From a virus: DNA of 64,000 nucleotides. A program made the translations under genes and the position numbers. Of the stretch, positions 1 through 64,000 are shown one piece after another. Below the pieces are notes generated by a model. The model was not told the origin of the DNA. It did no database searches and worked only from the letters and a program-made list of their open reading frames with translations. Position 1 is the stretch's first letter, and the number at the start of each line of letters is the position of its first letter. The stretch spans positions 4,080 to 68,079 of IMG/VR virus record IMGVR_UViG_3300009082_000021; one strand, written 5' to 3'.

Positions 1-371
1 AATTTAGCCTGCTGTGCCTGCACCTGATGAGATCGGCAACAGTAGAATTCCTTCTGCCCTCTCTTGGCTCTCTCCCGATACTTCCTACTCAAAATCTCGA
101 ATTCGTCTGCACACCAAGCACAGTTCAAGCTGATCATAGACGCCGGGACGTGATGATCTGCAACGTGCCTAGAGACTGTCTTCTTCTCCAGATTCCGGTA
201 ACGGTTGTCTTGCTTGTCCGTGTTCTTGTGGTGCACCACGAAGCCTGTGTCTGGCACCTCCCCCGTGTTCCTCCACCAGACCACATGATGCTCGTAGGCA
301 TAGCGTCCACGATACCGCTTTCCAGGGTATTCCTCGGGGGCAACGATCAAGATGTAGTCTCCGTTCTTCAT
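1..371 (-). CDS. HNH endonuclease (HNH_3-like), runs off the left edge
   Basis: Hand translation from ATG 371: MKNGDYILI...YAYEHHVVWW...VVHHKNTDKQDNRYRNL...H..DHH, then a CAWC/YCC Zn finger. No stop before the edge, so it is absent from the ORF track. Confidence 0.85.
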   Translation of the reverse strand, partial: MKNGDYILIVAPEEYPGKRYRGRYAYEHHVVWWRNTGEVPDTGFVVHHKNTDKQDNRYRNLEKKTVSRHVADHHVPASMISLNCAWCADEFEILSRKYRERAKRGQKEFYCCRSHQVQAQQAK

Positions 372-420
372 GTTCTACGCACCTCACCACTAGACTACAC
401 CATCTCCTAAGTCATTGCAA

Positions 421-494
421 TGGCTCTGGGACCCGGATTCGAACCGAGAAGAGGTGGTTAACAGCCACCCATGATACCATTTCATCATCCCAGA
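421..494 (-). tRNA. trnN: tRNA-Asn(GTT), CCA encoded
   Basis: Acceptor TCTGGGA/TCCCAGA, anticodon arm GGTGG-CTGTTAA-CCACC, T-loop TTCGAAT. Confidence 0.92.
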
Positions 495-525
495 ACGGGC
501 GCTACTACCTCTGAGCTACACCGGA
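495..525 (-). pseudogene. tRNA 5' remnant (acceptor strand + D arm)
   Basis: TCCGGTGTAGCTCAGAGGTAGTAGCGCCCGT is a typical tRNA 5' third and abuts tRNA-Asn. Confidence 0.6.
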
Positions 526-543
526 ATGATCTGGGGAGGGGGA

Positions 544-729
544 CTACTGGACGATGGGAGCTGCGTCTACGACCGCGGCCTCTTTGACCACGGATGCTTC
601 CTTGGCCACCGAGGCTTCCACCTGGACAGATGCCTCAACCTTGGGTCCAGCGTCCGGTTTGGGAACGACGGTGTCGTCGCTGCAAGCCACGAAGAACAGA
701 CTGAGAATGATCGCTAGTGTTAGTCTCAT
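544..729 (-). CDS. Small lipoprotein
   Basis: SD GGAGG; hydrophobic signal and lipobox FVAC; low-complexity VEASV/KEASV repeats. Confidence 0.75.
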   Translation of the reverse strand: MRLTLAIILSLFFVACSDDTVVPKPDAGPKVEASVQVEASVAKEASVVKEAAVVDAAPIVQ

Positions 730-765
730 GGATTCCTCCTGTGCCCTGAGGATAGCACAACTCGG

Positions 766-839
766 TCGGGATGAGAGGATTTGAACCTCCGACCCCCTGG
801 TCCCAGGCCAGGTGCGCTACCAGGCTGCGCTACATCCCG
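766..839 (-). tRNA. trnP: tRNA-Pro(TGG)
   Basis: CGGGATG acceptor; anticodon arm CCTGG-CCTGGGA-CCAGG (C33); followed by CCG rather than CCA. Confidence 0.88.
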
Positions 840-842
840 AAG

Positions 843-913
843 ATCCCCCGGCAGGAATCGAACCTGCGTACCTGGGGCCAAAGTCCAGGGCCCTACCATT
901 AGACGACGGGGGA
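843..913 (-). tRNA. trnQ: tRNA-Gln(TTG)
   Basis: TCCCCCG/CGGGGGA acceptor, loop CTTTGGC, T-loop TTCGATT. Confidence 0.85.
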
Positions 914-918
914 AGAAG

Positions 919-991
919 TGGAGAGGACAGGAATCGAACCTGCATGTCGGCTTTTTCAGAGCCGCGCCGTGACCACGTAGGCTACCTCTCC
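919..991 (-). tRNA. trnF: tRNA-Phe(GAA)
   Basis: GGAGAGG/CCTCTCC acceptor, CGGCT-CTGAAAA-AGCCG. Confidence 0.88.
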
Positions 992-1050
992 AGGAGCCCC
1001 ACCAGTCTCCGCTCAAAAGGAACTTCACAGACCCATGGAGCTGCGCGCGG

Positions 1051-1122
1051 TGGGCACGGAGGGAATCGAACCCTCATCACCCGGTTATGAGCCAGGGGCT
1101 TGCACCCTCCAGCTACATGCCC
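1051..1122 (-). tRNA. tRNA-Met or Ile2 (CAT)
   Basis: GGGCATG/CGTGCCC acceptor, loop CTCATAA. Confidence 0.85.
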
Positions 1123-1260
1123 ACGATGTGGCTGGGAGATCATCGCCTTGCGGCTCCTTCCCAGCCTGACCACAACCTCACTATTCTCGTGTCAATCACC
1201 ACCGGAGACGCTGGGGATACGGCCTCAGCTCCCGTCCTGATTCTCCCAGGACGTCTCCAA

Positions 1261-1335
1261 TGGTTCGGGGACGAGGACTCGAACCTCGTAGTGCGGATCC
1301 AGAGTCCGCCGGTTTGCCTGGTAGCCTATCCCCGA
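1261..1335 (-). tRNA. trnQ: tRNA-Gln(CTG), CCA encoded
   Basis: TCGGGGA/TCCCCGA, GCGGA-CTCTGGA-TCCGC. Confidence 0.9.
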
Positions 1336-1336
1336 G

Positions 1337-1408
1337 TGGGTGCGAAAGGAGTCGAACCTTCAACCTCGTGGTTAAGAGCCACTTGCGCTCCCATTGCGCC
1401 ACGCACCC
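1337..1408 (-). tRNA. trnK: tRNA-Lys(CTT)
   Basis: GGGTGCG/CGCACCC, GTGG-CTCTTAA-CCAC. Confidence 0.9.
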
Positions 1409-1409
1409 A

Positions 1410-1625
1410 TTACCATTTCACAGCCTCATCCGCTTCGAACGTGACCTCCATCTCCAGTTCCACCACCCTGTTCAGGAACTTCCTCTTCGGCTTCGTGCCA
1501 CCGGCAGGAGTTGAACCTGCAACCTCGGGAGTAAAAGTCCCTTGCTCTTCCAGTTGAGCTACGGAGGCGGGTCTCTGAGACTCTGCCTCGCGTTTCAACC
1601 GCCAATCGAACTCTCTGATCGTCAT
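1410..1625 (-). CDS. Hypothetical 71-aa ORF containing tRNA-Lys(TTT)
   Basis: Good SD (GGAGG-CAAC-ATG); the frame stays open through the tRNA. Confidence 0.4.
   Translation of the reverse strand: MTIREFDWRLKREAESQRPASVAQLEEQGTFTPEVAGSTPAGGTKPKRKFLNRVVELEMEVTFEADEAVKW
1496..1568 (-). tRNA. trnK: tRNA-Lys(TTT)
   Basis: GCCTCCG/CGGTGGC acceptor (1 mismatch), TAGCTCA D arm, GGGA-CTTTTAC-TCCC. Confidence 0.82.
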
Positions 1626-1636
1626 GTTGCCTCCAG

Positions 1637-1714
1637 TGGAGCGGGGAGGACTCGAACCTCCGCGTGGTGTGCCTGGGTTACAGCCAGGTGCCGTCGCCGC
1701 TGGGCCACCGCTCC
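1637..1714 (-). tRNA. trnY: tRNA-Tyr(GTA)
   Basis: GGAGCGG/CCGCTCC, CCTGG-CTGTAAC-CCAGG, about 10-nt variable region. Confidence 0.88.
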
Positions 1715-1715
1715 A

Positions 1716-1759
1716 TAAAAGAAAAGGCCGCTAGGAATCGCTTCCGGGCGGCCTTTTCT
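1716..1759 (-). terminator. Intrinsic terminator (attenuator) upstream of the tRNA array
   Basis: Inverted repeat AGAAAAGGCCGC/GCGGCCTTTTCT with a minus-strand U tract. Confidence 0.8.
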
Positions 1760-1779
1760 ATCCCTCAGTAGGTGTTAGA

Positions 1780-1947
1780 TCAGCCGCCCGTGCTCCTATG
1801 TGCCTGCTCGGGATTCGGGGCCATCGCTGGCTTTTGAATACCTAGCAGGCACGGATAGGCCACGGCGCACGAATCCGTGCCGGTGCCTGTGGTCCCAAGG
1901 GACCAAAAGCGACTGGACAATGATTCTGTGCGGCGTTTCTGTAACAT
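1780..1947 (-). CDS. Candidate 55-aa attenuator leader peptide
   Basis: MLQKRRTESLSSRFWSLGTTGTGTDSCAVAYPCLLGIQKPAMAPNPEQAHRSTGG*; its last codons are complementary to the terminator arm. Confidence 0.5.
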   Translation of the reverse strand: MLQKRRTESLSSRFWSLGTTGTGTDSCAVAYPCLLGIQKPAMAPNPEQAHRSTGG

Positions 1948-1971
1948 CTGCGTTGGGGTTACCTTTCTCCC

Positions 1972-2000
1972 TTTGTGACAGGGTCGATCATGGATGTCAA
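1972..2000 (-). promoter_or_regulatory. Candidate sigma70-type promoter of the tRNA operon
   Basis: TTGACA-17 bp-CACAAA on the minus strand; the -10 is weak. Confidence 0.35.
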
Positions 2001-2014
2001 GAGGAAAAGAACAG

Positions 2015-2338
2015 TCAGTTCTCGAAGGGACCGGGGTGGGTCTTCTTACTCTCCACCAACAACGGCTGGTCGATCTCCCGGTAACGGAACACGCTGTTAG
2101 CCTTCAGGTATCCCGTGCGGAAGAGAGAGCCCGTCTTGTCCATGCATCGAACGACGAAGACCAGGACATCGTTGGCGTGATCATAAGCGGTGAGCTTGAT
2201 CTCCACCATCCCGGACATGAACTGCATGAGGGGAAGTGAGTCCAGATGGAATCCCACCCGCCAGAGGTTCTGGCCCTCAAACCACAGCTCGGGGTCTATT
2301 CTCCGAGCTTCGTCTGCTGGAAGATCGAGTGATGCCAT
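2015..2338 (-). CDS. Hypothetical protein
   Basis: ORF from MASLDL, in an operon with the upstream gene. Confidence 0.65.
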   Translation of the reverse strand: MASLDLPADEARRIDPELWFEGQNLWRVGFHLDSLPLMQFMSGMVEIKLTAYDHANDVLVFVVRCMDKTGSLFRTGYLKANSVFRYREIDQPLLVESKKTHPGPFEN

Positions 2339-2919
2339 GTCTCGTCCCACGGTTCTCCTGCCGCGAGTAGAACAAGATGCGATAGCTCGTGCAAGAACAA
2401 ACCGTGAACGTAGTCTACCCGCGCAGCCCAGCCAATGACAACGTCCTCTGTCTCCGCGTAGGCCCGAACCCATCTTCCCCAGACACTCAGCTTCTCCTCA
2501 TCCCGGAAGAAGACCGTCTTCCCCTCGATCGCTTCTGAGGGGATGTGATTCCCCACCAGAACCTTGGTCCCATCTGGCCGAGTCCAGGCGGCACCGGCCC
2601 AGTGGTTGAGGAGTTCCACCGTCCAGGCCTCGACCTCCTCCAACTTCGGGCGGTTGACGTTCCCCTGGATGACGTAGAGACCATGGACAGTCTTGTAGTG
2701 GTACTTCCTCAGCCTCGACCGGACGAAGTACCAAATGGGGATCGAGGCCAGAAATACGAGGCCGGTCAGGATCGAGATCGTCCGCGCGACCGCTACCCCA
2801 TCGGCCATCGGCACACCGTAGATCGCAGCAAGAGTGCACAGAACAGCAGCACCAATCCCCGTACCCCAAGGTATGATCAGATCGAGCTTCGTGAAGACCC
2901 AAAGGCGTTCTTTCTTCAT
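2296..2919 (-). CDS. Membrane-anchored zincin-like metallopeptidase
   Basis: Two N-terminal TM helices; C-terminal LFLHELSH (HExxH); SD GGAGG. Confidence 0.65.
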   Translation of the reverse strand: MKKERLWVFTKLDLIIPWGTGIGAAVLCTLAAIYGVPMADGVAVARTISILTGLVFLASIPIWYFVRSRLRKYHYKTVHGLYVIQGNVNRPKLEEVEAWTVELLNHWAGAAWTRPDGTKVLVGNHIPSEAIEGKTVFFRDEEKLSVWGRWVRAYAETEDVVIGWAARVDYVHGLFLHELSHLVLLAAGEPWDETWHHSIFQQTKLGE

Positions 2920-2972
2920 GGTTGCCTCCTCGACCAACGTTATCACCATCGTGAAAAAGCCGCACCGAAAAC

Positions 2973-2980
2973 GGCATAAG
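2973..2980 (+). promoter_or_regulatory. Phage promoter motif GGCATAAG
   Basis: One of at least 11 intergenic copies upstream of plus-strand units. Confidence 0.6.
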
Positions 2981-2984
2981 GAAG

Positions 2985-3088
2985 GTAGAGACGAGGAAGA
3001 AATTCCTCTGTCTCTAGCCCCGAGTCGGAGCGGGGATCATCGCTTCTCCTTTCAAGTGTCTGGAGGGACTCCGACCCCTCCTCTTTAA
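2985..3088 (+). ncRNA. Candidate structured sRNA or leader with kissing loops
   Basis: Three hairpins; loops GTCGGAG (3024-3030) and CTCCGAC (3069-3075) are complementary; ends in a terminator-like hairpin + TCTTT. Confidence 0.5.
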
Positions 3089-3102
3089 CCCAGGAGGCCA
3101 CG

Positions 3103-3486
3103 ATGCAGGTCGAGATCTTGAAGAATGATCTGACCGCACTTGCCGATGCTCTCCACTGGGTGGAGACACGCATCGATAACCAGAGCACGATAGTCCACGG
3201 GTTGAGGGGCACGGGCTTCTTCCACGTACACTGGAAGAACGCCTACCCCCTCGTCGTCCTGGAAGGCGAGGACTTCACGGAACTCATCCGAGAGGCAGAG
3301 GAGTGGTTGGAGGCCCAACACTGGAAGATCGCGGAACTCCGCGCTAAGGCGCGGACTCGGAAGATCGAAAAACGGTGGGCGAAGACGCAGCCCATCGAAC
3401 GATGTCTCCGGGTCCTCCACGCGGCAGTCCGCCCCAAGCCGCGCGGACTCTGGGACCGGCTTCGCATCCGGCTCTTCGGACGGTAA
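3103..3486 (+). CDS. Hypothetical protein
   Basis: SD AGGAGG; terminator follows. Confidence 0.75.
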   Translation: MQVEILKNDLTALADALHWVETRIDNQSTIVHGLRGTGFFHVHWKNAYPLVVLEGEDFTELIREAEEWLEAQHWKIAELRAKARTRKIEKRWAKTQPIERCLRVLHAAVRPKPRGLWDRLRIRLFGR

Positions 3487-3487
3487 A

Positions 3488-3525
3488 GAGGGGAGGCCGA
3501 CCACGCCGGCCTCCCCTCTTCTTTA
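3488..3525 (+). terminator. Intrinsic terminator
   Basis: AGAGGGGAGGCC/GGCCTCCCCTCT + TCTTT between convergent genes. Confidence 0.75.
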
Positions 3526-4185
3526 GCTCGTGTGCCTCTTGCAGATGTCCGAGACCGTCCGGGTCAAGTATTCCCACTCTTGTTCCGTTCGGATGTTCCC
3601 ATCGTAGATGATCGAGTGTGGCTTGACAGAATGGAACCAGGGGACGAGGCCACGCTCGAGCTCCAGGAGAAGCTCCTCGTAGCCAGCCTTCAGTTCCTGG
3701 AGATACTCGAGCGGCACGGCGTTCTCACACGAACGGCTCCGCTCCTTCATCCGAGCGTAGGCGGTTTCCGGCTGGCAGTTGAGGTAGATGAGCGCGGTCG
3801 GCGGGTTGTAGTGCCTGGCCATCGTGTCGTACCAGGTCTCGTAGAGCTTGAAGCCAAGATCATCGATGTTCCCCTTCCTCCAGTGCAACTTGGCGAAGAC
3901 ACGATCTCCCGGCATGCACCGATCGAGGATGTACCCCTTCTCCACGCCCCGCGCGGCTCCGAAAGAAGCCTCCTGCTTCATCACGTAGCGGTTCCGCATC
4001 ATGTGGAGCTGGAGCTGAAGGGCGTACGTCTTGGGGTCCTTGTAGAACGCCTCCAGATACTCGTTGTTGTCCACCGGCTCTTCCAGCAAGCGGAAGCCGA
4101 GGCGCTTGGCGACTTCACGGGCGAAGGTGGTCTTGCCGGATGCAATAATCCCCTCCACCCAGATGATGGGAACATTCTTCTCCAT
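3523..4185 (-). CDS. Deoxynucleoside kinase (dNK family)
   Basis: VEGIIASGKTT P-loop, EEPV, LDRC, RxxERSRSCE, YLQEL motifs. Confidence 0.92.
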   Translation of the reverse strand: MEKNVPIIWVEGIIASGKTTFAREVAKRLGFRLLEEPVDNNEYLEAFYKDPKTYALQLQLHMMRNRYVMKQEASFGAARGVEKGYILDRCMPGDRVFAKLHWRKGNIDDLGFKLYETWYDTMARHYNPPTALIYLNCQPETAYARMKERSRSCENAVPLEYLQELKAGYEELLLELERGLVPWFHSVKPHSIIYDGNIRTEQEWEYLTRTVSDICKRHTS

Positions 4186-4211
4186 GAGCCCTCCTTGTTG
4201 TAGAGGTGATT

Positions 4212-4640
4212 CTACACGTCCTCCAGGTCACCAGCCAAGTCGGCCAGCATCATGGCGTAGTTCGCAAGGTCTGCGGCCTTCAGACCGATTCCCCGCTTCT
4301 TCCCCACCGCTTCCTTCAGCTCCACCAAGATCTTATCGAGGCCGTCCAGGTACTGCTGGGGACCTGCATCGTTCTTCCAGCTCATGCCACCTCGACCAGG
4401 ATCGTGCTTCATGAGCTTCATCTCCATCAGCCCTGCGAACTTCTTGATCTCCGGCCGGATGTGATCGGCACAGAAGTCGCGGACCAGGAGAGCGATGTTG
4501 TGGCGAAGAGGAGAGTTCCCTGCGAGAGCAGTGACCATCTCCTTCAGGTGTGTCGTGTCAGCTTCGCCTCCGATGTTCGCGAGGAGGCGTTCGGCCAATC
4601 GGCTGAGTTGCTGGCGGGCCAGGGTATCGGTCGTCTTCAT
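4212..4640 (-). CDS. Hypothetical protein (all-alpha NTP-PPase-like C-terminus)
   Basis: MEMKLMKHD...W...ELKEA...AADLANYAMML. Confidence 0.6.
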   Translation of the reverse strand: MKTTDTLARQQLSRLAERLLANIGGEADTTHLKEMVTALAGNSPLRHNIALLVRDFCADHIRPEIKKFAGLMEMKLMKHDPGRGGMSWKNDAGPQQYLDGLDKILVELKEAVGKKRGIGLKAADLANYAMMLADLAGDLEDV

Positions 4641-4864
4641 CTTCGCACCACCTTGGTCGAGATCTCGAACTCAACCTTGTCCCGCAGGGATTCGACTCTC
4701 TTCTCCAGCTCTGATTCCGTGAAGAGGGGGCCGTCGTCGTTGTATTCGACTCCGCCGATCGACTCCAACTCCTTGACCAGCACCTGGGCAACGGTGGACT
4801 TGCCGCTCTTCGCCGGTCCGCTGATCTCAATCTTGATTCGGGGCTTCTTGTTCAGCTCGTCCAT
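4637..4864 (-). CDS. Small protein with a P-loop motif
   Basis: IEISGPAKSGKSTVAQ; SD AAGGAG. Confidence 0.65.
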   Translation of the reverse strand: MDELNKKPRIKIEISGPAKSGKSTVAQVLVKELESIGGVEYNDDGPLFTESELEKRVESLRDKVEFEISTKVVRR

Positions 4865-4879
4865 GACAGCTCCTTTCAA

Positions 4880-5188
4880 CTAAGGCACCGAGAGTGTGCC
4901 GATGCTTCGCCTCAGCATGGCCTGATCGTACTCCCGCTTGATGTCGTTGTACTTAGCCATATACTCCTTCCAGTGAAACACATCGATCATGTGAGCGAGG
5001 AGATAGACCCTGTCTTCGGGAGACATCTTCACTCCCGACCTCTCCACCTCTTCGATCATCTCACCAAGCGCCTTCTGGAAGGAGCCGGGCTCCTCGAGCG
5101 TGGGCTCCTTGGGTGGGCCGACATCGAGGAACTCCTTCAGCTTGTTCCAACGCTCCTCCGTGCGAGTAGGCGTCTTCAACGCATCCAT
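4880..5188 (-). CDS. Hypothetical protein
   Basis: Operon packing. Confidence 0.7.
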   Translation of the reverse strand: MDALKTPTRTEERWNKLKEFLDVGPPKEPTLEEPGSFQKALGEMIEEVERSGVKMSPEDRVYLLAHMIDVFHWKEYMAKYNDIKREYDQAMLRRSIGTLSVP

Positions 5189-5550
5189 GGGGGCTCCTTG
5201 TACCAGGGTTTGAAGTTCAAGATCTTCTGCGCCAGCCCTTCCGTCTCCCCCTCGAACCGGAGTGCCCGGTCATCGAGGTAGACGTAGGCTGCGATCTTGG
5301 CGCTGCCATTCGGCGGTTGCCAAGGATTCTCGTTAATGTAATCAAAGGGGATGTCATGCTTCTTGAGGTGCTCTTTGATCTCCCAGGTGTTGGCTCGGAC
5401 GGTCCAGATGATGATCGCCCAACCAGCAGCCCGGAGGACACCAAGCTCTCGCGCTATGCCCGGGATGGGCTCGCCCAGTGGCTTCTCGATGTCCTCGTAC
5501 TTCAGGATGGTACCATCCAGATCGGCGGCTAGGATTCGCGGTCTAGTCAT
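5176..5550 (-). CDS. HAD-superfamily phosphatase
   Basis: ADLDGT, IIWTVR, KI.AYVYLDDRA motifs. Confidence 0.85.
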   Translation of the reverse strand: MTRPRILAADLDGTILKYEDIEKPLGEPIPGIARELGVLRAAGWAIIIWTVRANTWEIKEHLKKHDIPFDYINENPWQPPNGSAKIAAYVYLDDRALRFEGETEGLAQKILNFKPWYKEPPWMR

Positions 5551-6011
5551 TTCTTCTCCTCCAGCCAGACATCACTTCCTTGCTTGACCATCTGCATCCC
5601 ATCCATCTCCGCGATCACCTCCCTTGAGGCCAGCATCCTGGGCATGTCGGAAGCCGCGCTCTGGGGAGGCACAGGATGGAAACTCTGACGGATGTCAGGC
5701 GGGGGAGGACTGGGGAACGTCCTCTTCTTCGAGTCAAAGAAGTCGGGGATGCCGGCGTCTGCCCACATCTTATCCTCCTGCTTGATCAACTCCGCATTGC
5801 ACCTTGGGCAGACTGGGAGGTAGAGAACTTGGGGGGAGGAGAGACGCGCCATGTTCTCCACGAGGGACTGGGAGACCTCCAGTGAAGTCGTAGCCACGAT
5901 TGTCATGAGCTGAGAGACCAGCTCATACTGGGAGACAGCAAGGTGCTGGTACTTCTCCAGCAGGTTCTCGATCTTCTGTTGGGCCAGACAGTAGGCTTCT
6001 CCCGGCTTCAT
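5547..6011 (-). CDS. Hypothetical protein
   Basis: ATGA overlap with neighbours. Confidence 0.7.
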   Translation of the reverse strand: MKPGEAYCLAQQKIENLLEKYQHLAVSQYELVSQLMTIVATTSLEVSQSLVENMARLSSPQVLYLPVCPRCNAELIKQEDKMWADAGIPDFFDSKKRTFPSPPPPDIRQSFHPVPPQSAASDMPRMLASREVIAEMDGMQMVKQGSDVWLEEKK

Positions 6012-40786: not shown

Positions 40787-43700
40787 TCATACGACGAGTG
40801 TCAAGCGGATGTAGTTGCAGGGGTAGGGAACGTCGAGGGTGACGTCGATGAGCACCGTGTCCGGAGCGTCCTCGTCCTGGACGATGTTGTTCAGGTCACC
40901 ACCGATGAGCACTCCCGACTCCGTGAGGAATGAGAGCTGTCCCTGGATGACCGTGCTGAGGGTATCCAGGAACGGCTGGGTGATGTTGAACTTCCCGATG
41001 AAGTTCCGTAGGCCAGCCCGCATGAACTTCGCGGTGAAGTCCACGACCTTGGTGATGGACAGCTCACGGGTCTCGATGCTCGTGAGGTCCGTAGTGAGCT
41101 GATGCCGACAGGTGAGGGCCCCACCGGTCACCTCCTGGATGACCCAATACGTCCCACCGGCTGCACCGATGTTCATCTGCTTGTTGCTGAAGACATCGTT
41201 GGAGCCGAAGGGCCGGGTGAAGCCGATGATCGGGAAGTTCGTGAAGCCCTGCTGCGGAGGCTGCTGACCACACATGCCGGCGATGGCCGCGCAGAGGTAG
41301 TACCCCTTGATCTTCTGCTCCGTGCTCTCGATGTTGGCTCCCACGTACTCTGGGGCCACCATGACCACCCGGCGATTCGCGTAGGTCTTGCCGAGATCCT
41401 GGTACGCCTGGGCGATGGCGTCGTAGTCCGGGTCACCATCGCTGTCCACCAGCGCCTCGCCCCTCACGTAGAGGGTAAAGGCTTCGCTGATGAGGGTGAG
41501 CGGAAGGTTGGTCTCGGAGTAGAAGTCGTCGTCGTTCTCGCCGGCGCTGAAGGCCACCCGGACCGTGACCTTCGTCCCGCTGATTGAGGCGACGCTGTAC
41601 CGCTTCGTGTTGGTCGCGATGTCGAGGTACAGCCCCGCGCTCGCCGTCAGGTTTCCTGGATCCAGGCCCGCGGCCACGATGTCGGCCGAGAGGCTGGCGA
41701 GCTTGGTGTCGAACTCGTTCGTGACCGGAGTGCTATCCCCGTCCGTGCCGCTGTTGACCATCGTGGGGACGGCCTCGCCCGGCATCTCGGGGTTGATGAA
41801 GACGATCCGTTCGCCCTTGGCATCGGGATCGCTCATCTCATCGACGTGTGCGATGCAGACCTGGTGGACGTTGGGGTCCTGGCTGGAGGGCGCCAGAGCG
41901 TAGACCTCCTGGGCCTCCAGGAAGGTTAGGGCGCGGGTGAAGCCATCCACCGTCCCATCCGGGTTGCTGGAGCTGGTCTCGTCCACGCCGATTCCCGACA
42001 CCGTGATTCCCGGAGCGTTGATGCTCATGAAGTACAGCATCAGGCCCAGGGGGTTGTCCGTGGTGATGGGTGCCAGTGCACTCTCGAGCTCGGTCGTGTC
42101 ATCGATGCTCAGGAGGCTGGGGGTCGTGGCCCTGGCAGTCACGTCCAGCCGGAGGGCCTTGTAGGCGATGATGATCGCGGCCGAGGCGTAGATCGGGATG
42201 CCCTCGGAGTCGCGGAGGATGTCCTGCTTCAGGTTCAGGGCCCCCGTGGAGTCGATGACCAGGTCGGGAGTCGGCCTGGAAGAAGACGACACGATGTTGA
42301 GGGCCTCGATGTAGTAGGCGTAGCCATAGAAGCTGGTCGAGACCTCCCGGTCGAGCTTCAGACGGTTGGTGTACCCACTGGGGGAAACCACCGTGATGTA
42401 GCCAACGAGCTCACCGTCCACGTAGACGCCATCACCCACGACCGGGGCGAAGGGAGCGCCCTCATCGTACTGGGCCGAGGTGAAGCCGAGCAGCGTGTTG
42501 GCCGACCCGGCGCCGATGGAGACCTTCGATTCCGCTCCCGTGATGGAGGAGAGGAGCTTGAGGTAGTTGCTGGAGTTCGAGGCGAAGCTCGCGCCGAAGG
42601 TCGCGTTGATGAAGGTCACGATCTCAGCCAGCGTCATCGTCTGGTAGATATCGACAACGCCTGTGAGACCGAGGTCTGCCCAAGCGGTACCCGTCGCTCC
42701 GCTGTAGTCCAGCCAGATCTCTCCGCCCTCGACTGCCGTTGCCCCGCCGACCTGGAACGAGATGTAGGTTCCAACCGGGTCGGCCACGCCAGAGGCGTTC
42801 GAGCGGTAGCAGACCGTGAGGCCGGCGGCCGCATTGATTTGGCTGATGGCCGAGCTGATGGAGATGGGATCGGTTCCGCTGAAGGTGCAGGTCTTGGTGG
42901 TCCCGTTCACGACGAAGACGAGGGCAGAAGTGTTGAGTGTGTTGCTGGTGTTGAAGACCGAACCCGGGATGATCGGGCCAGCGTCGAAAGTGAGCGTCTG
43001 GGGTGTGCCACCATCGAGGGAAGCGATGAAGGTCTTGTTGTGGATCTGGACGGGGCTCGAGAGGAGAGCCGAGCCGGTGAGGGTGGCTGCGTCGGCCGGG
43101 ACGTTGAAGTCCTCCTGATCCATGACGATGTAGGGGGTCTTGGCGTCCCCGTCACCGTCATCCACCGGCTCCACCGTGTATGCCTTGTCCCCGTCCGTCC
43201 AGCCCAGGCTCGTGTGAGCGGAGGTCGCGGAGGGCTGCACGACCTCGAAGTAGCCGTAGGTGGACTTCGCGTCCAGGTACGTCCCATTCACCACGAACGT
43301 GATGCCGGTCAGGGCCGAAACCAGCGTGTTCATCGCGCTGGCGAGGGCGGAGATGGTAGCGGGCTCACTGGCGAAGGTGAACTCGTGGGTGGTGTCGCCC
43401 TTCTTGTACTTGAAGGCGAACTTCTTGGTGTTGAAACTGCCATAGGTGATCGTCCCGCTGGTGTAGGTGGCACCCTTCAGCCGGCGGAGGAAGGACGCGT
43501 CGTCCAAGATCTCTGTCAAGATCGGCGTCCTGGTCGTCCCGCTGACTTCCACCCGGCCGGTGTTCACGAACACGCGGATGGAGGACTCGTCCACGTCCAG
43601 CTCGTCCTCATCGAGGTCCCGCGGGTCGGGGAAGTTCGCCTGCTCGATGTGGACGTCGTAGTTCTCGTAGGTCGAGACGCCCTCGGCCGTGAAGTTGTCG

Positions 43701-44185
43701 GGGAACCCGAGGATCGAGTTGGCATCCCCATCCAGCACCGTGAGGAGCTGACCCGAGCCTGCATTGGTTGAGCGGAGCTGGAGGTAGTAGTCGGTGCCGT
43801 CCGTCACCACGTAGGGGCTGAAGCCACTGGGGGCCGGTTCGGTGGCGTTGATCTGGTCCTTGAGGTCGGACGCGCTCAGGCCGAGCGAGGTCGGGTCACT
43901 GAACTCGAACTCCTGAGTGGCTCCGCCATTCACGCTCACCTTCAGAATCAGGCCGTCCAACCCGGCGTAGTCGCCGGCGATGCTGGCCGTCAAGACCGCG
44001 GGGACGGAGGCCAAGGCATCCGAGTTCACGGTCTTGTTGCCAGTGGAGTCGGTCTCATACGCCTCGAGCACCTGGAAGGCGGGCGCAATGGAGCAGGGGA
44101 CCAACGTCGGAGTCACGATCGTCGGGCTGACAGTTCGAAACTCCTGGATGACTGATACGCCAGGTTGAAGCAACTCGGTAGCCAT
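40787..44185 (-). CDS. Contractile tail sheath protein
   Basis: N-terminal QPGVSVIQE; C-terminal RHQLTTD...RELSITKVVDF...VPYPCNYIRLTL. Confidence 0.9.
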   Translation of the reverse strand: MATELLQPGVSVIQEFRTVSPTIVTPTLVPCSIAPAFQVLEAYETDSTGNKTVNSDALASVPAVLTASIAGDYAGLDGLILKVSVNGGATQEFEFSDPTSLGLSASDLKDQINATEPAPSGFSPYVVTDGTDYYLQLRSTNAGSGQLLTVLDGDANSILGFPDNFTAEGVSTYENYDVHIEQANFPDPRDLDEDELDVDESSIRVFVNTGRVEVSGTTRTPILTEILDDASFLRRLKGATYTSGTITYGSFNTKKFAFKYKKGDTTHEFTFASEPATISALASAMNTLVSALTGITFVVNGTYLDAKSTYGYFEVVQPSATSAHTSLGWTDGDKAYTVEPVDDGDGDAKTPYIVMDQEDFNVPADAATLTGSALLSSPVQIHNKTFIASLDGGTPQTLTFDAGPIIPGSVFNTSNTLNTSALVFVVNGTTKTCTFSGTDPISISSAISQINAAAGLTVCYRSNASGVADPVGTYISFQVGGATAVEGGEIWLDYSGATGTAWADLGLTGVVDIYQTMTLAEIVTFINATFGASFASNSSNYLKLLSSITGAESKVSIGAGSANTLLGFTSAQYDEGAPFAPVVGDGVYVDGELVGYITVVSPSGYTNRLKLDREVSTSFYGYAYYIEALNIVSSSSRPTPDLVIDSTGALNLKQDILRDSEGIPIYASAAIIIAYKALRLDVTARATTPSLLSIDDTTELESALAPITTDNPLGLMLYFMSINAPGITVSGIGVDETSSSNPDGTVDGFTRALTFLEAQEVYALAPSSQDPNVHQVCIAHVDEMSDPDAKGERIVFINPEMPGEAVPTMVNSGTDGDSTPVTNEFDTKLASLSADIVAAGLDPGNLTASAGLYLDIATNTKRYSVASISGTKVTVRVAFSAGENDDDFYSETNLPLTLISEAFTLYVRGEALVDSDGDPDYDAIAQAYQDLGKTYANRRVVMVAPEYVGANIESTEQKIKGYYLCAAIAGMCGQQPPQQGFTNFPIIGFTRPFGSNDVFSNKQMNIGAAGGTYWVIQEVTGGALTCRHQLTTDLTSIETRELSITKVVDFTAKFMRAGLRNFIGKFNITQPFLDTLSTVIQGQLSFLTESGVLIGGDLNNIVQDEDAPDTVLIDVTLDVPYPCNYIRLTLVV

Positions 44186-60284: not shown

Positions 60285-60387
60285 TCATAGGTTCGTGATT
60301 CCCGTTCTGTCAATCACGGCGGGCTTGTACACCGTGTGCGCGGTCTCTAGTATAGGTAGCATGCACCCCAGGGAGATGGGAAGTCCA

Positions 60388-61228: not shown

Positions 61229-64000
61229 TTACCCCTGATACACGGGCACCCCAGACTCTCTCATCGGACGGATGATGTCGGGGCGTGGCTGTTGGATCAT
61301 TGACGCCAGAAGACAGTACAGAATCGAGTGGAAGGCGTCGTCCGTCTTCCCATGAGCGTGCTTGAACTCCTCCATCCTCAGCCGGTTGTTGTACTCGCTG
61401 AAGATGTTGAGGATGTCCTGACCGTAGGGATCAAAGAACTCCTCCCAGTTCGGCAGGTCCACCAGCTTCTTCTTGAACGCCGTGAAGAGGTCGCTCATCA
61501 CCTCTGATCGATGGCACATGTAGCGAAGGAGGTTCTGCTCCCAGTAGATCTTCTTCCTCTGCCGCGGGTTGTACTGGTACTTGATGACCTTGTTGGGTCC
61601 GAACCGCTGGATGAGGATCTTGTTGTTGTGGAAGCCCCCACCGTAGTCCACGCCCACGAGCTGAACGTGAAGCTGAGTGATCATCTGGGAGATGAGGTCG
61701 AGCTGTCTGTCCGGCTCAAGATCTGGCCCGGTGAAACGGTGCACCCAGAAGATGGTGAAGTTCCCGCCACCAAGATAGCCGCCGAAGCTGATCACGGTGT
61801 AGGTGTTCTCGCCCGTGTTGCCCTGATAGGCGATCGATCCATTCCGTTCCGTCACGATGTAGCCGGAAGGGACCTTGCAACAGTAGACCTTGCCATTGTA
61901 AGGAACACGCTCTACTCGATCTTTGAGAGCATTGAACTGGAAGTCCCGACCGCTGGACCAGAGAGCCCTCCATCGGGTCTTCCGGTTTCCAATAGCTTCC
62001 TTGTGGAGGCGAACCACGCAGCGTAGTCCCAGTCGGATGCAGAGTTCCTGGAAGTCCTCGCAAAGACCCCTTGAAGTGGAATAATAAGCGCCGTTATTGC
62101 AGTCCTCTCTCGGATCAATGTACCCATCACCCAATGTCATGGCATCAAAGAGAATCTGAAGTTGTCGTTTGGAGAGTCCCAGCACCCAACGTGGCAGGCG
62201 TTTAGTATCGCCCGTCCTTCCCACATTGAAATAGAACCAGTGCCAGAATTGCTTCCCTTTGATCGTCCAATTCAGATCACCCGTCTCTTCGTTTGGGAAC
62301 TCGGTGAAGGGGATTCCTAATCTTTCCATGCATTCCTTAATCCGAAGCGACTTGATTGGGGCAGCATCCTCGCGCTGAGACATCTTCAGGGAATAGGGAA
62401 ACATGACAGTCGGGTCGGCTTTGCTGGGACGGAGGCAGACCCCACCTTCGGACACCACGTATCCAAGGAACTCCAGCCAATCATCCATCCTGAAGGTGCG
62501 ATGATCACACCCCACATATCCGGGGCTCTTCGGTAAAGCTGGCAACTGGAATAGTTCTTCCTCCCGGCCATGCCAGTCCACGTGACCAACGAACTTGACT
62601 ACACTTCTTTCGGCAGTTTCTTCCGCCGTCTCCGTTGTCCATCGCGTGGCGTTTGGGCCAAGTACACGCATACGGTGGACATGATTCAGCATCATGTCCA
62701 AGCCCCGTGCTTTGAAATGCAGGAGTGGTTGATCCCAGTCCCGAACGGTTCTTTCTAGGGGCCGAACTAGCATCATCTCCCGGGTCTCAGGATCCCATTG
62801 GGCCACCAGATCATCGTCGGTGAGGTCACGGAAGTAGACGAAGCCACGCTGGGTGAGGATGCGGGTTTCCTCATCATGGCAACCCCAGTCAATCCCAGCG
62901 TACACGCGACGGCCTTGGGCGAGCTCCTTGAACTGCTCGATGTCACCCATCCGGATGTGAGACTTGCAGCAAGACTGAAGTTGAGCCCTGGTGATCGGGC
63001 GGACACCAGAGTCATAGGACATCCCCAGCTTCTCGTTCATGAACTGGGCACGAGGATAATGCTCCTGCGCCTCCAGAACCTCCTGCCAATCAACCCAGGG
63101 GACCATGAGTTGAGGGATTCGATAACCCTCGAAGGCCACCTTGTTCTCATTCGAGGGCGTTCGGGGGTTCATGCTAGCCCACTTGGCCTGTGGATGGGCA
63201 GCACTGATCAGCTCTCCGCACTTGTCACAGACCAATCCTTGCTTGCCGATGTTCTTCTCCCCCAGCACATTCCAGTGCCACGAGCTGGGGTTGTTCGGCG
63301 TCCCGTGCCGCTCGCAGGGGACCACCCACTCATTCTGGGTGGAGAACTCCTGCCAGTAGTGTTCGATCGTGTTGTCCTCCGACTTCGGCGTGCCGGAGTA
63401 GAGGAACAACTTGTAGCTGGAGTGGAAGGCGCACTGCTCGATGATCGGGATGTTGTCCACCAGGATGTCCTGGAGCTCATCGATGCAGACCAGGTCGGCT
63501 GGGATGCCTCGGACTCGGTCGGCGGTGAGGTAAGCGTACCGCAGACGGATTTGGGAGAAGTTGATGAACTTCTTAAAGAACACGGCCTGGCTGATCTTCG
63601 TGGTGGTGTACGCCTTGAGGAGTGGAGAAGACTCCACCACGTCCTTGATGCGGTCCACCGAGAAGACCTTAGCCTGCTCCGCGGAAGGGGCGACGTAGAG
63701 AGAACGGAAGTTGTTGGTCAGCGCGGAGTAACAGAGCAGCCTGTTCCCCAACGTCGTGCTCTTCTCCACCTGCCGTCCGCACTTCAGAAGCACCTTGTCC
63801 GAGGCGGTATCGTAGATCCTACGGAGATACTCTCTGCCTTCGAAGGAGAACTGACTGACTCGGCCAGCTTCTGGGACCTGGATAGCTGTCTCAGCAAACT
63901 GGGAAGGGGAGACGTCGTAGATCAACAGCTCAGGGTTGAGGGCCAGCAGGTCTTCAGGAGTTGGATCTGGCGGCTCCTCATCGAACCCGAAGTCGGTGGG
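61229..64000 (-). CDS. terL: Terminase large subunit (gpA-like) with intein; 5' end lies beyond the window
   Basis: KCGRQVEKST, CIDELQD, SGTP, YAGIDWG nuclease motif, DDAFHS; frame open to 64000. Confidence 0.9.
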   Translation of the reverse strand, partial: PTDFGFDEEPPDPTPEDLLALNPELLIYDVSPSQFAETAIQVPEAGRVSQFSFEGREYLRRIYDTASDKVLLKCGRQVEKSTTLGNRLLCYSALTNNFRSLYVAPSAEQAKVFSVDRIKDVVESSPLLKAYTTTKISQAVFFKKFINFSQIRLRYAYLTADRVRGIPADLVCIDELQDILVDNIPIIEQCAFHSSYKLFLYSGTPKSEDNTIEHYWQEFSTQNEWVVPCERHGTPNNPSSWHWNVLGEKNIGKQGLVCDKCGELISAAHPQAKWASMNPRTPSNENKVAFEGYRIPQLMVPWVDWQEVLEAQEHYPRAQFMNEKLGMSYDSGVRPITRAQLQSCCKSHIRMGDIEQFKELAQGRRVYAGIDWGCHDEETRILTQRGFVYFRDLTDDDLVAQWDPETREMMLVRPLERTVRDWDQPLLHFKARGLDMMLNHVHRMRVLGPNATRWTTETAEETAERSVVKFVGHVDWHGREEELFQLPALPKSPGYVGCDHRTFRMDDWLEFLGYVVSEGGVCLRPSKADPTVMFPYSLKMSQREDAAPIKSLRIKECMERLGIPFTEFPNEETGDLNWTIKGKQFWHWFYFNVGRTGDTKRLPRWVLGLSKRQLQILFDAMTLGDGYIDPREDCNNGAYYSTSRGLCEDFQELCIRLGLRCVVRLHKEAIGNRKTRWRALWSSGRDFQFNALKDRVERVPYNGKVYCCKVPSGYIVTERNGSIAYQGNTGENTYTVISFGGYLGGGNFTIFWVHRFTGPDLEPDRQLDLISQMITQLHVQLVGVDYGGGFHNNKILIQRFGPNKVIKYQYNPRQRKKIYWEQNLLRYMCHRSEVMSDLFTAFKKKLVDLPNWEEFFDPYGQDILNIFSEYNNRLRMEEFKHAHGKTDDAFHSILYCLLASMIQQPRPDIIRPMRESGVPVYQG
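61817..62881 (-). mobile_element. LAGLIDADG intein (355 aa) in the terminase
   Basis: GIDWG|CHDEETRILTQRG...ERNGSIAYQGN|T; FLGYVVSEG and LFDAMTLGDG. Confidence 0.92.

Follow-up and report, generated by a model that had tools for sequence, protein, structure and literature searches.

A probable transcription attenuator at the head of a phage tRNA gene array

The window analysed here is a stretch of 64,000 nucleotides (nt), positions 4,080 to 68,079 of the IMG/VR virus record IMGVR_UViG_3300009082_000021, and it contains part of a phage array of transfer RNA (tRNA) genes. At the 5' head of this array, on the minus strand between the stop codon of a 107-amino-acid (aa) gene (2017-2015) and the first array gene, tRNA-Tyr (1714-1636), lies a structured element (2014-1716) which is probably a genuine terminator/antiterminator attenuator gating the phage tRNA genes. 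An initial annotation made from the sequence alone had proposed that the switch is operated by translation of a 55-codon open reading frame (ORF) within the element. Control by a ribosome on this ORF is the explanation that we tentatively prefer, while leaving ample room for other ways of setting the switch. The element stands outside the described families and is a known kind of control in a new place.

The annotation of a strong terminator after the ORF, directly followed by the first tRNA, was borne out. The terminator hairpin (1759-1720), followed by CUUUUA down to 1716, has a folding energy of -25.7 kcal/mol (z -5.6 against shuffles) and is among the few strong hairpin-plus-T-tract sites in the 68-kb record. 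Its U tract ends 2 nt ahead of tRNA-Tyr. No promoter can fit between the U tract (1716) and the tRNA (1714), and a scan of the array revealed no other terminator; at least the first tRNAs would therefore be made by read-through. One RNA-library contig covering 1500-1745 with 0 mismatches at a depth of 2.8 joins tRNA-Tyr to the 3' arm of the terminator; it may stem from DNA carry-over and is weakly consistent with read-through. The RNA-library runs (X8 and X9) gave low-depth contigs on the neighbouring genes and on 1500-1745 and none over 1746-2014, and they are uninformative on expression. Regarding the sequence itself, DNA run X4 yielded pieces identical to the window and X7 a single change at 2069, outside the element.

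The central observation is a helix that competes with this terminator. The last codons of the ORF had been reported as complementary over 8 nt to the terminator 5' arm. The match is exact, CGGGCGGC (1790-1783) being the reverse complement of GCCGCCCG (1752-1745), and a U1782-G1753 pair extends the antiterminator to 9 pairs. Taken alone, the antiterminator hairpin (1792-1743) reaches -26.7 kcal/mol, level with the terminator, and the two folds are mutually exclusive since both use 1753-1745. A complement of at least 8 nt to the terminator 5' arm occurred in 4.4% of dinucleotide shuffles when the 198 nt upstream were considered and in 1.1% when the nearest 60 nt were. The other terminator-like hairpins of the record with arms of 12 to 21 nt showed such a complement in none of 9 cases, the longest being 7 nt; two more hairpin candidates, with parsed arms of only 2 and 4 nt, were excluded from this comparison. 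When the nascent RNA was cut at 1742, with the terminator 3' arm still absent, its minimum free energy (MFE) fold was the antiterminator. Three alternative folds can thus be drawn, anti-antiterminator, antiterminator and terminator, and the classical 1:2/2:3/3:4-type architecture that had been suggested for this region is real and unlikely to be due to chance (shuffle P 0.011-0.044 for the complement).

These figures also bear on a simpler account, which we hold to be rather improbable, in which there is no switch. The hairpin would then be a plain, perhaps leaky, terminator or a 3'-protecting hairpin that closes either the transcript of the two upstream genes (217 and 107 aa) or a structured, stable RNA some 240 nt long, and both the antiterminator complement and the ORF would be chance. 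The tRNAs would arise either by leak-through combined with RNase P cleavage or from a weak start within the hairpin region, and the two large hairpins upstream (arms A and B) could serve RNA stability or RNase III-type processing. In keeping with this, the terminator is strong and canonical and is terminator-like on the plus strand too, and long, nearly all Watson-Crick hairpins suit processing sites while carrying no strand information. A weak promoter-like CTGATC-17-TAGAAA, noticed by eye at 1783-1755, would start transcription near 1747, and the RNA-library contig ends at about 1745, though contigs cannot show starts. The tRNA gene cluster of phage T4, which contains stable RNAs of unknown function, offers a precedent. 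Such an account has to treat as accidents the rarity of the antiterminator complement among shuffles, its lack in the 9 other hairpins and an energy equal to that of the terminator, as well as the frame kept in homologues and the high codon diversity described below; the internal promoter matches 7 of 12 consensus positions and falls below the criteria of the promoter scan.

The attenuator reading was further evaluated with a ribosome model in which a 30-nt footprint was masked along the ORF during folding, a model restricted to geometry that excludes kinetics. In the masked nascent RNA cut at 1742, the probability of the antiterminator was about 1 up to codon 49 and 0 with the A site at codons 50 to 56. 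In the equilibrium model, the antiterminator was favoured only with the A site at about codons 25 to 37, positions from which the ribosome masks the 5' base of arm B. As modelled, this ribosome-blocking geometry is what ribosome-mediated attenuation needs.

The mechanism could then run as follows. RNA polymerase transcribing through the 217-aa and 107-aa genes upstream, or starting at another promoter, would meet the terminator 2 nt before tRNA-Tyr. The 9-bp antiterminator of equal stability could capture the terminator 5' arm, while the base of arm B and the closing stem would hold the antiterminator strand as an anti-antiterminator. The switch would most likely be set by a ribosome on the 55-codon ORF. 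Were it at the last codons or the stop while the terminator is being synthesized, it would cover the antiterminator strand, the terminator would form and the tRNAs would be off. Were translation lagging or stalled earlier, or the ribosome absent, the antiterminator would form first and the polymerase would read into the tRNA genes. We infer translation of the ORF, a working terminator in the host and this direction of the response. One may go further and see in the element a phage-encoded sensor of general translation capacity, in which ribosome occupancy of a codon-diverse ORF sets read-through into at least 25 tRNAs, so that the phage's own tRNA supply would be on when host tRNAs are short and off once translation recovers; taken as a whole, this chain is speculative and we consider it unlikely. 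Its link to anticodon nucleases, by which host tRNAs would run short after attack, is purely conjectural.

Table 1. Features of the candidate attenuator and its surroundings (window coordinates)
Feature	Description	Position	Strand	Basis or property
5' hairpin D1	pyrimidine tract with TTGACA (2000-1995) paired to purine tract AGGGAGAAAGG	1958..2012	-	MFE fold
Candidate leader ORF	55 codons (ATG 1947, TGA 1782-1780)	1780..1947	-	ORF list, two homologues
Arm A	67-nt irregular hairpin, apical palindrome UGGUCC-CUUG-GGACCA	1866..1932	-	-32.0 kcal/mol, z -5.1
Arm B	78-nt hairpin, 9-bp helix GUGCCUGCU/AGCAGGCAC, GCGA tetraloop	1788..1865	-	-41.1 kcal/mol, z -6.7
Antiterminator 5' strand	last bases of codons 53-55 (CGGGCGGC) and U of the UGA stop	1782..1790	-	pairs with 1753-1745
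Shared strand	antiterminator 3' strand, part of the terminator 5' arm	1745..1753	-	fold
Intrinsic terminator	12-bp stem, inner 4-bp GGAA/UUCC stem, GCGA loop, U tract (UUUUCUUUUA)	1716..1759	-	fold
tRNA-Tyr (GTA)	first gene of the array	1636..1714	-	ARAGORN and Rfam

The element as a whole is exceptionally structured. Its 299 nt (2014-1716) fold at -124.6 kcal/mol, compared with -92.2 +/- 5.4 kcal/mol for dinucleotide shuffles (z -6.0, equalled by none of 200 shuffles). Against a background of 347 non-overlapping 196-nt minus-strand segments of the record, adjusted for GC content, the segment 1673-1868 ranked first for structure and the sensor domain 1957-1762 (D2) ranked 10. The long alternative hairpin said to border the antiterminator codons is present within arm B, where the MFE fold pairs GTGCCTGCT (1852-1844) with AGCAGGCAC (1808-1800) into a 9-bp helix. 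At its base (CCGUG/CACGG), arm B holds part of the antiterminator strand in the predicted fold, acting as the anti-antiterminator.

The ORF was found where it had been annotated (1947-1780). By itself it is unremarkable, as 68 ORFs of at least 30 aa overlap positions 1-5000. Its codon content is less ordinary. The counts given initially, 40 different codons and all 20 amino acids, are right, and the caveat attached to them, that this diversity is close to random expectation, is wrong, for the ORF falls in the top 0.4-4%. Among 521 short-ORF chunks of the record, 0.4% reached forty distinct codons and 1.0% the full set of 20 amino acids; the corresponding shares were 0.5% and 1.9% for 417 long-ORF chunks and 4.1% and 3.1% for random ORFs of matched composition. 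The codon usage looks non-coding: the ORF scored -0.225 per codon, whereas 55-codon chunks of real genes scored +0.338 +/- 0.187 (0% as low) and off-frame chunks -0.443 +/- 0.182. Its GC content by codon position is 0.53/0.60/0.64, compared with about 0.6/0.4/0.72 in genes.

Homologues of the ORF product were searched for in large protein collections. A full HMMER search among 1.84 billion representatives detected one true homologue, P0004 (52 aa, 29/50 identical), and a profile search of 5.8 billion clusters added a second one, P0008 (88 aa). Two other candidates, P0005 and P0006, each matched in 6 short stretches and were dropped as low-complexity matches, P0005 being visibly a repeat protein. 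In P0004 and P0008 the frame is open and both the ATG and the stop position, preceded by two glycines, align with those of the window ORF. The ATG of P0008 being internal, the shared ATG is not an artefact of start calling. There are three separate one-codon gaps relative to the window and one further gap between P0004 and P0008. When neutral substitution to the same divergence was simulated, the ATG was kept and stops were avoided in 13% of 3000 runs, and we estimate that whole-codon net length differences contribute a chance factor of at most about 1/27. All 20 amino acids also occur in each homologue, within 51-52 residues, with the caution that the rare residues lie mostly in conserved blocks. 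Thus, the conservation in relatives on which the initial proposal was to be checked is there insofar as frame, ATG and stop are kept in both homologues; it amounts to two close kin recovered by a protein search.

The residues themselves appear to drift neutrally, without protein-like selection, judging from the alignment. Only 3 of 22 substitutions are BLOSUM-positive, with a mean of -1.09 (neutral simulation: -0.80 +/- 0.28), compared with 29 of 89 and a mean of -0.04 in a neighbouring real protein at 57% identity. An open frame combined with a freely varying peptide is as predicted for a regulatory leader ORF. The same observations speak to the possibility that the ORF simply encodes a small protein of 52-55 aa and has a terminator of its own, the RNA structure being secondary. 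Frame, start and stop are kept in the two homologues and gene callers called both of them, as would be expected of such a gene. We nevertheless judge it highly improbable, because the codon score lies below those of all real-gene chunks tested, the substitutions look neutral and the start lacks a Shine-Dalgarno (SD) sequence. Moreover, the ORF product matched no family in PHROGs, and neither it nor P0004 nor P0008 matched any in Pfam. AlphaFold2 run on a 3-row alignment gave mostly coil at low confidence (predicted local distance difference test, pLDDT, 59.9; predicted template modelling score, pTM, 0.16), which is weak evidence because the alignment is shallow.

Several observations weigh against the attenuator reading, or against the part that the ribosome is given in it. 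In the full-length RNA, the terminator state is ahead at equilibrium by 4-8 kcal/mol, because the base of arm B and the closing stem take the antiterminator strand; the switch therefore hinges on folding kinetics. The ORF has no canonical SD, and the poor SD spacing already conceded at the outset was confirmed, the purine tract ending 14 nt ahead of the ATG; of the 23 gene starts inspected, 13 carry a GGAG/GAGG/AGGA core between -8 and -12. The ORF contains two hairpins, of -32 and -41 kcal/mol, which is unusual for leader peptides. No run or cluster of regulatory codons was detected in the ORF, and the 25 phage tRNAs can read 37 of its 55 codons, compared with 35.8 +/- 4.8 in real genes, that is, no enrichment. 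The promoter is also in question. The TTGACA proposed as its signature is a perfect -35 hexamer (2000-1995), but a usable -10 is missing and the promoter is weak: at 17 nt the -10 of a sigma-70-type promoter (2000-1972) would be CACAAA, a 3/6 match by eye, and no promoter was recovered there by the consensus promoter scan. TTGACA is threefold depleted in the window (8 copies, compared with 24 +/- 4.7 in shuffles), and among these copies only the one at 60313 on the minus strand is followed by a good -10 (TATGAT, 18 nt on). The hairpin D1 that harbours the hexamer begins 3 nt past the stop of the 107-aa gene, and its stability (2014-1958) is no better than that of shuffles (z -0.3).

The conservation argument has weaknesses too. 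A protein search detects in-frame homologues only, which biases the case for frame preservation; this bias is probably modest because the collection seems poor in relatives, as illustrated by the two homologue clusters of the 217-aa neighbour. The two homologues are identical at 43 of 51 positions, hence close kin and effectively one independent lineage. The window's own ORF was not among the predicted proteins of the searched collection. As for the RNA, 13 of 51 pairs need a change to be compatible with the homologue residues and 3 are kept by parsimony, within the 3-7 kept by slid controls. Mirrored conservation was not significant either, 31 of 59 pairs agreeing while 23 of 54 circular shifts did equally well or better. 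Searches for further relatives were carried out at several levels. The antisense 94-aa ORF, used as a query for out-of-frame homologues, gave no candidate. A blastn search of 1600-2100 against 50,697 phage records matched 89 of them, and among the matches listed only the tRNA-Tyr part was covered. No relative emerged from viral contigs scanned with the 107-aa, 217-aa, dNK-like and helicase proteins, with alignments A1 and A2 and with a tRNA-junction pattern, nor from genome contigs scanned with alignment A3. Finally, metagenome contigs scanned with alignment A1 yielded one contig of 1526 bases, L003, which bears both upstream genes. After these genes, in the 215 nt available (1312-1526), it shows a different terminator-like hairpin and a convergent ORF, no tRNAs, and the element is not visible; the linkage of the upstream genes to the array is therefore not fixed.

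Part of this evidence would be equally well accommodated by an attenuator that is independent of translation, which we regard as a credible alternative, less probable than ribosome control and more so than the absence of any switch. The switch would be the same, set by a factor or a ligand acting on a sensor formed by arms A and B and the closing stem (1957-1762), with the ORF incidental. It could be set by a small molecule, by a protein of the phage or the host or by an RNA, for instance a tRNA, in a manner resembling a riboswitch, a T-box or a protein-dependent antiterminator. The layout is that of a riboswitch platform, the 3' strand of the sensor closing helix and of the arm B base overlapping the antiterminator strand, and the stability of arms A and B far exceeds that of shuffles. 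The absence of a canonical SD and the non-coding-like codon usage point the same way. The conserved peptide blocks RTESL/DSC, W.LGT and NPEQAHR fall on the helix strands of arms A and B, and the two arm A deletions, of one codon each, face each other across a single helix segment; both observations lower our confidence in ribosome control. Such a sensor would, however, require three coincidences: a kept frame, a stop located exactly at the edge of the antiterminator strand and a top-percentile codon diversity. The mirrored-conservation test lends it no significant support, and no candidate ligand or binding protein was identified. With Rfam searched at E up to 10 (1-4000 and 1700-2030), no family reached its gathering score, with T-box, riboswitches, 6S, RNase P and known small RNAs included; the best sub-threshold scores were 21.1 bits, with 50 needed, for ctRNA_p42d on the terminator hairpin only and 17.5, with 45 needed, for ar35 on the sensor region. 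ARAGORN detected no transfer-messenger RNA (tmRNA).

The virus record comprises 68,079 bases, of which the window covers 4080-68079, and CheckV estimates its completeness at 37%. The window encodes a large terminase (TerL), a tail-sheath-like protein, a helicase and a nucleoside/thymidylate-kinase-like protein. It is distant from cultured phages, the best identities being about 34-36% for the helicase and 31.8% for TerL. Every gene near the candidate attenuator is on the minus strand. ARAGORN identified 25 tRNA genes in the whole record, 9 of them within the window, forming one array entirely on the minus strand; 25 is a lower bound, since the array reaches less than 700 bases from the contig end and may extend further. 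In record coordinates the array spans 691-5793, that is, window positions 421-1714 together with the 4,079 bases preceding the window, and 16 of the 25 tRNAs lie outside the window. They comprise a tRNA-Ile with the unusual anticodon AAT at record positions 691-766.

Several features of the array deserve to be recorded in their own right. It is interrupted by an HNH_3 endonuclease ORF (window 3-371, minus strand; Pfam E 3.2e-12) and a second time by a 61-aa ORF (544-729, minus strand) whose N-terminus is hydrophobic and lipoprotein-like and whose SD, AGGAGG, is strong. Directly upstream of tRNA-Asn, the stretch 496-523 (minus strand) resembles by eye the 5' half of a tRNA, acceptor strand and D arm, with the 3' half absent, and may be the remnant of a lost or split tRNA. 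The spacer between tRNA-Gln(CTG) and tRNA-Met measures 138 nt (1123-1260, minus strand) and carries the only other minus-strand TTGACA of the array (1195-1190) along with two short inverted repeats seen by eye, GGAGACG/CGTCTCC and GGCTGGGA/TCCCAGCC; this spacer may be a further promoter or processing element.

Upstream of the element, the 207/217-aa protein (2296-2949, minus strand) has hydrophobic N-terminal segments and an invariant H-E-x-x-H (H177, E178, H181). It matched no Pfam or PHROG entry, and among 5.8 billion clusters just two were homologous; the protein may be a metallopeptidase-like one of the membrane. Further along, a GC-rich hairpin at 3487-3519 (-26.7 kcal/mol in a 50-nt context) with T-rich tails on both strands sits between the convergent kinase-like gene (3523-4185, minus strand) and a 127-aa ORF (3103-3486, plus strand) and is likely a bidirectional terminator. 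The 898-aa terminase ORF (61229-63925, minus strand) matches terminase at residues 4-350 and a second time at about 677-794, and may therefore carry an insertion or an intein. In the 1132-aa ORF (40787-44185, minus strand) the tail sheath match is confined to residues 928-1132.

Phage tRNA arrays are now viewed as a counter to tRNA-cleaving host defences, according to three reports (PMC10264068, PMC11555353, PMC11464382). The control of array expression is hardly addressed, the words promoter, terminator and transcribed being all absent from one of them (PMC10264068). At the level of listings and abstracts, the literature gave no description of regulated phage tRNA arrays, or of such a feedback loop in a phage or a tRNA operon. 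With a conditional terminator placed there, if real, the phage would be metering its tRNA supply at the head of the array. If, in addition, the trigger were the progress of a ribosome on a codon-diverse ORF, it would constitute a simple and general sensor of translation stress, and leader-peptide attenuation would be extended to RNA genes. Being self-contained and small, at about 240 nt, the element is directly testable by reporter constructs.

Known systems resemble the element to various degrees. The RNAs of the T4 cluster, likened here by description, are structured non-tRNA RNAs beside phage tRNA genes that are possibly released by RNase P, whereas the present element precedes the array and its terminator, at the 3' end, faces a competing antiterminator. 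Read-through of intrinsic terminators controls phage gene timing in the lambda N/Q, HK022 put RNA and P7 systems, put being a cis-acting RNA of two stem-loops upstream of terminators. The likeness is in the use of terminator read-through for timing; those systems modify the polymerase processively and need no competing helix, while the present element would oppose a helix of equal energy to one terminator. Riboswitches and T-boxes share with it a structured sensor of about 200 nt, a closing strand overlapping the antiterminator and a following intrinsic terminator, but the phage antiterminator helix lacks the bulge for the tRNA 3' end, and there is neither an Rfam match nor a known ligand. The classical leaders trpL, hisL, pheL and pyrBI have ORFs of 14-44 codons with a good SD and runs of the regulatory codon. 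Their 1:2/2:3/3:4 logic, with the ribosome at the end of the leader ORF covering the antiterminator strand, is the one proposed here; the phage ORF differs by its 55 codons, the lack of a codon run and of a canonical SD and the two very stable internal hairpins.

By analogy, the closest precedent for a long, non-specific leader ORF is bmrB of Bacillus subtilis (PMC4191407, whose discussion also describes trp attenuation). In the bmrB-bmrCD system, a leader ORF of 53 aa senses ribosome-targeting antibiotics by means of terminator, antiterminator and anti-antiterminator folds; its translation was shown by experiment, and rare codons slow its ribosome (PMC4191407). There are differences. In bmrB the ORF contains the terminator and the genes under control are those of an ABC transporter, whereas the phage terminator comes after the stop and the regulated genes would be tRNAs; the two share no sequence similarity, and translation of the phage ORF is only predicted. 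The likeness lies in a long leader ORF (53 and 55 aa), in the same set of three folds and in a response to general slowing of translation rather than to one amino acid, the rare codons of bmrB having a possible counterpart in the un-gene-like codon usage of the phage ORF. Unlike the amino-acid operon class, the class represented by bmrB needs no run of regulatory codons.

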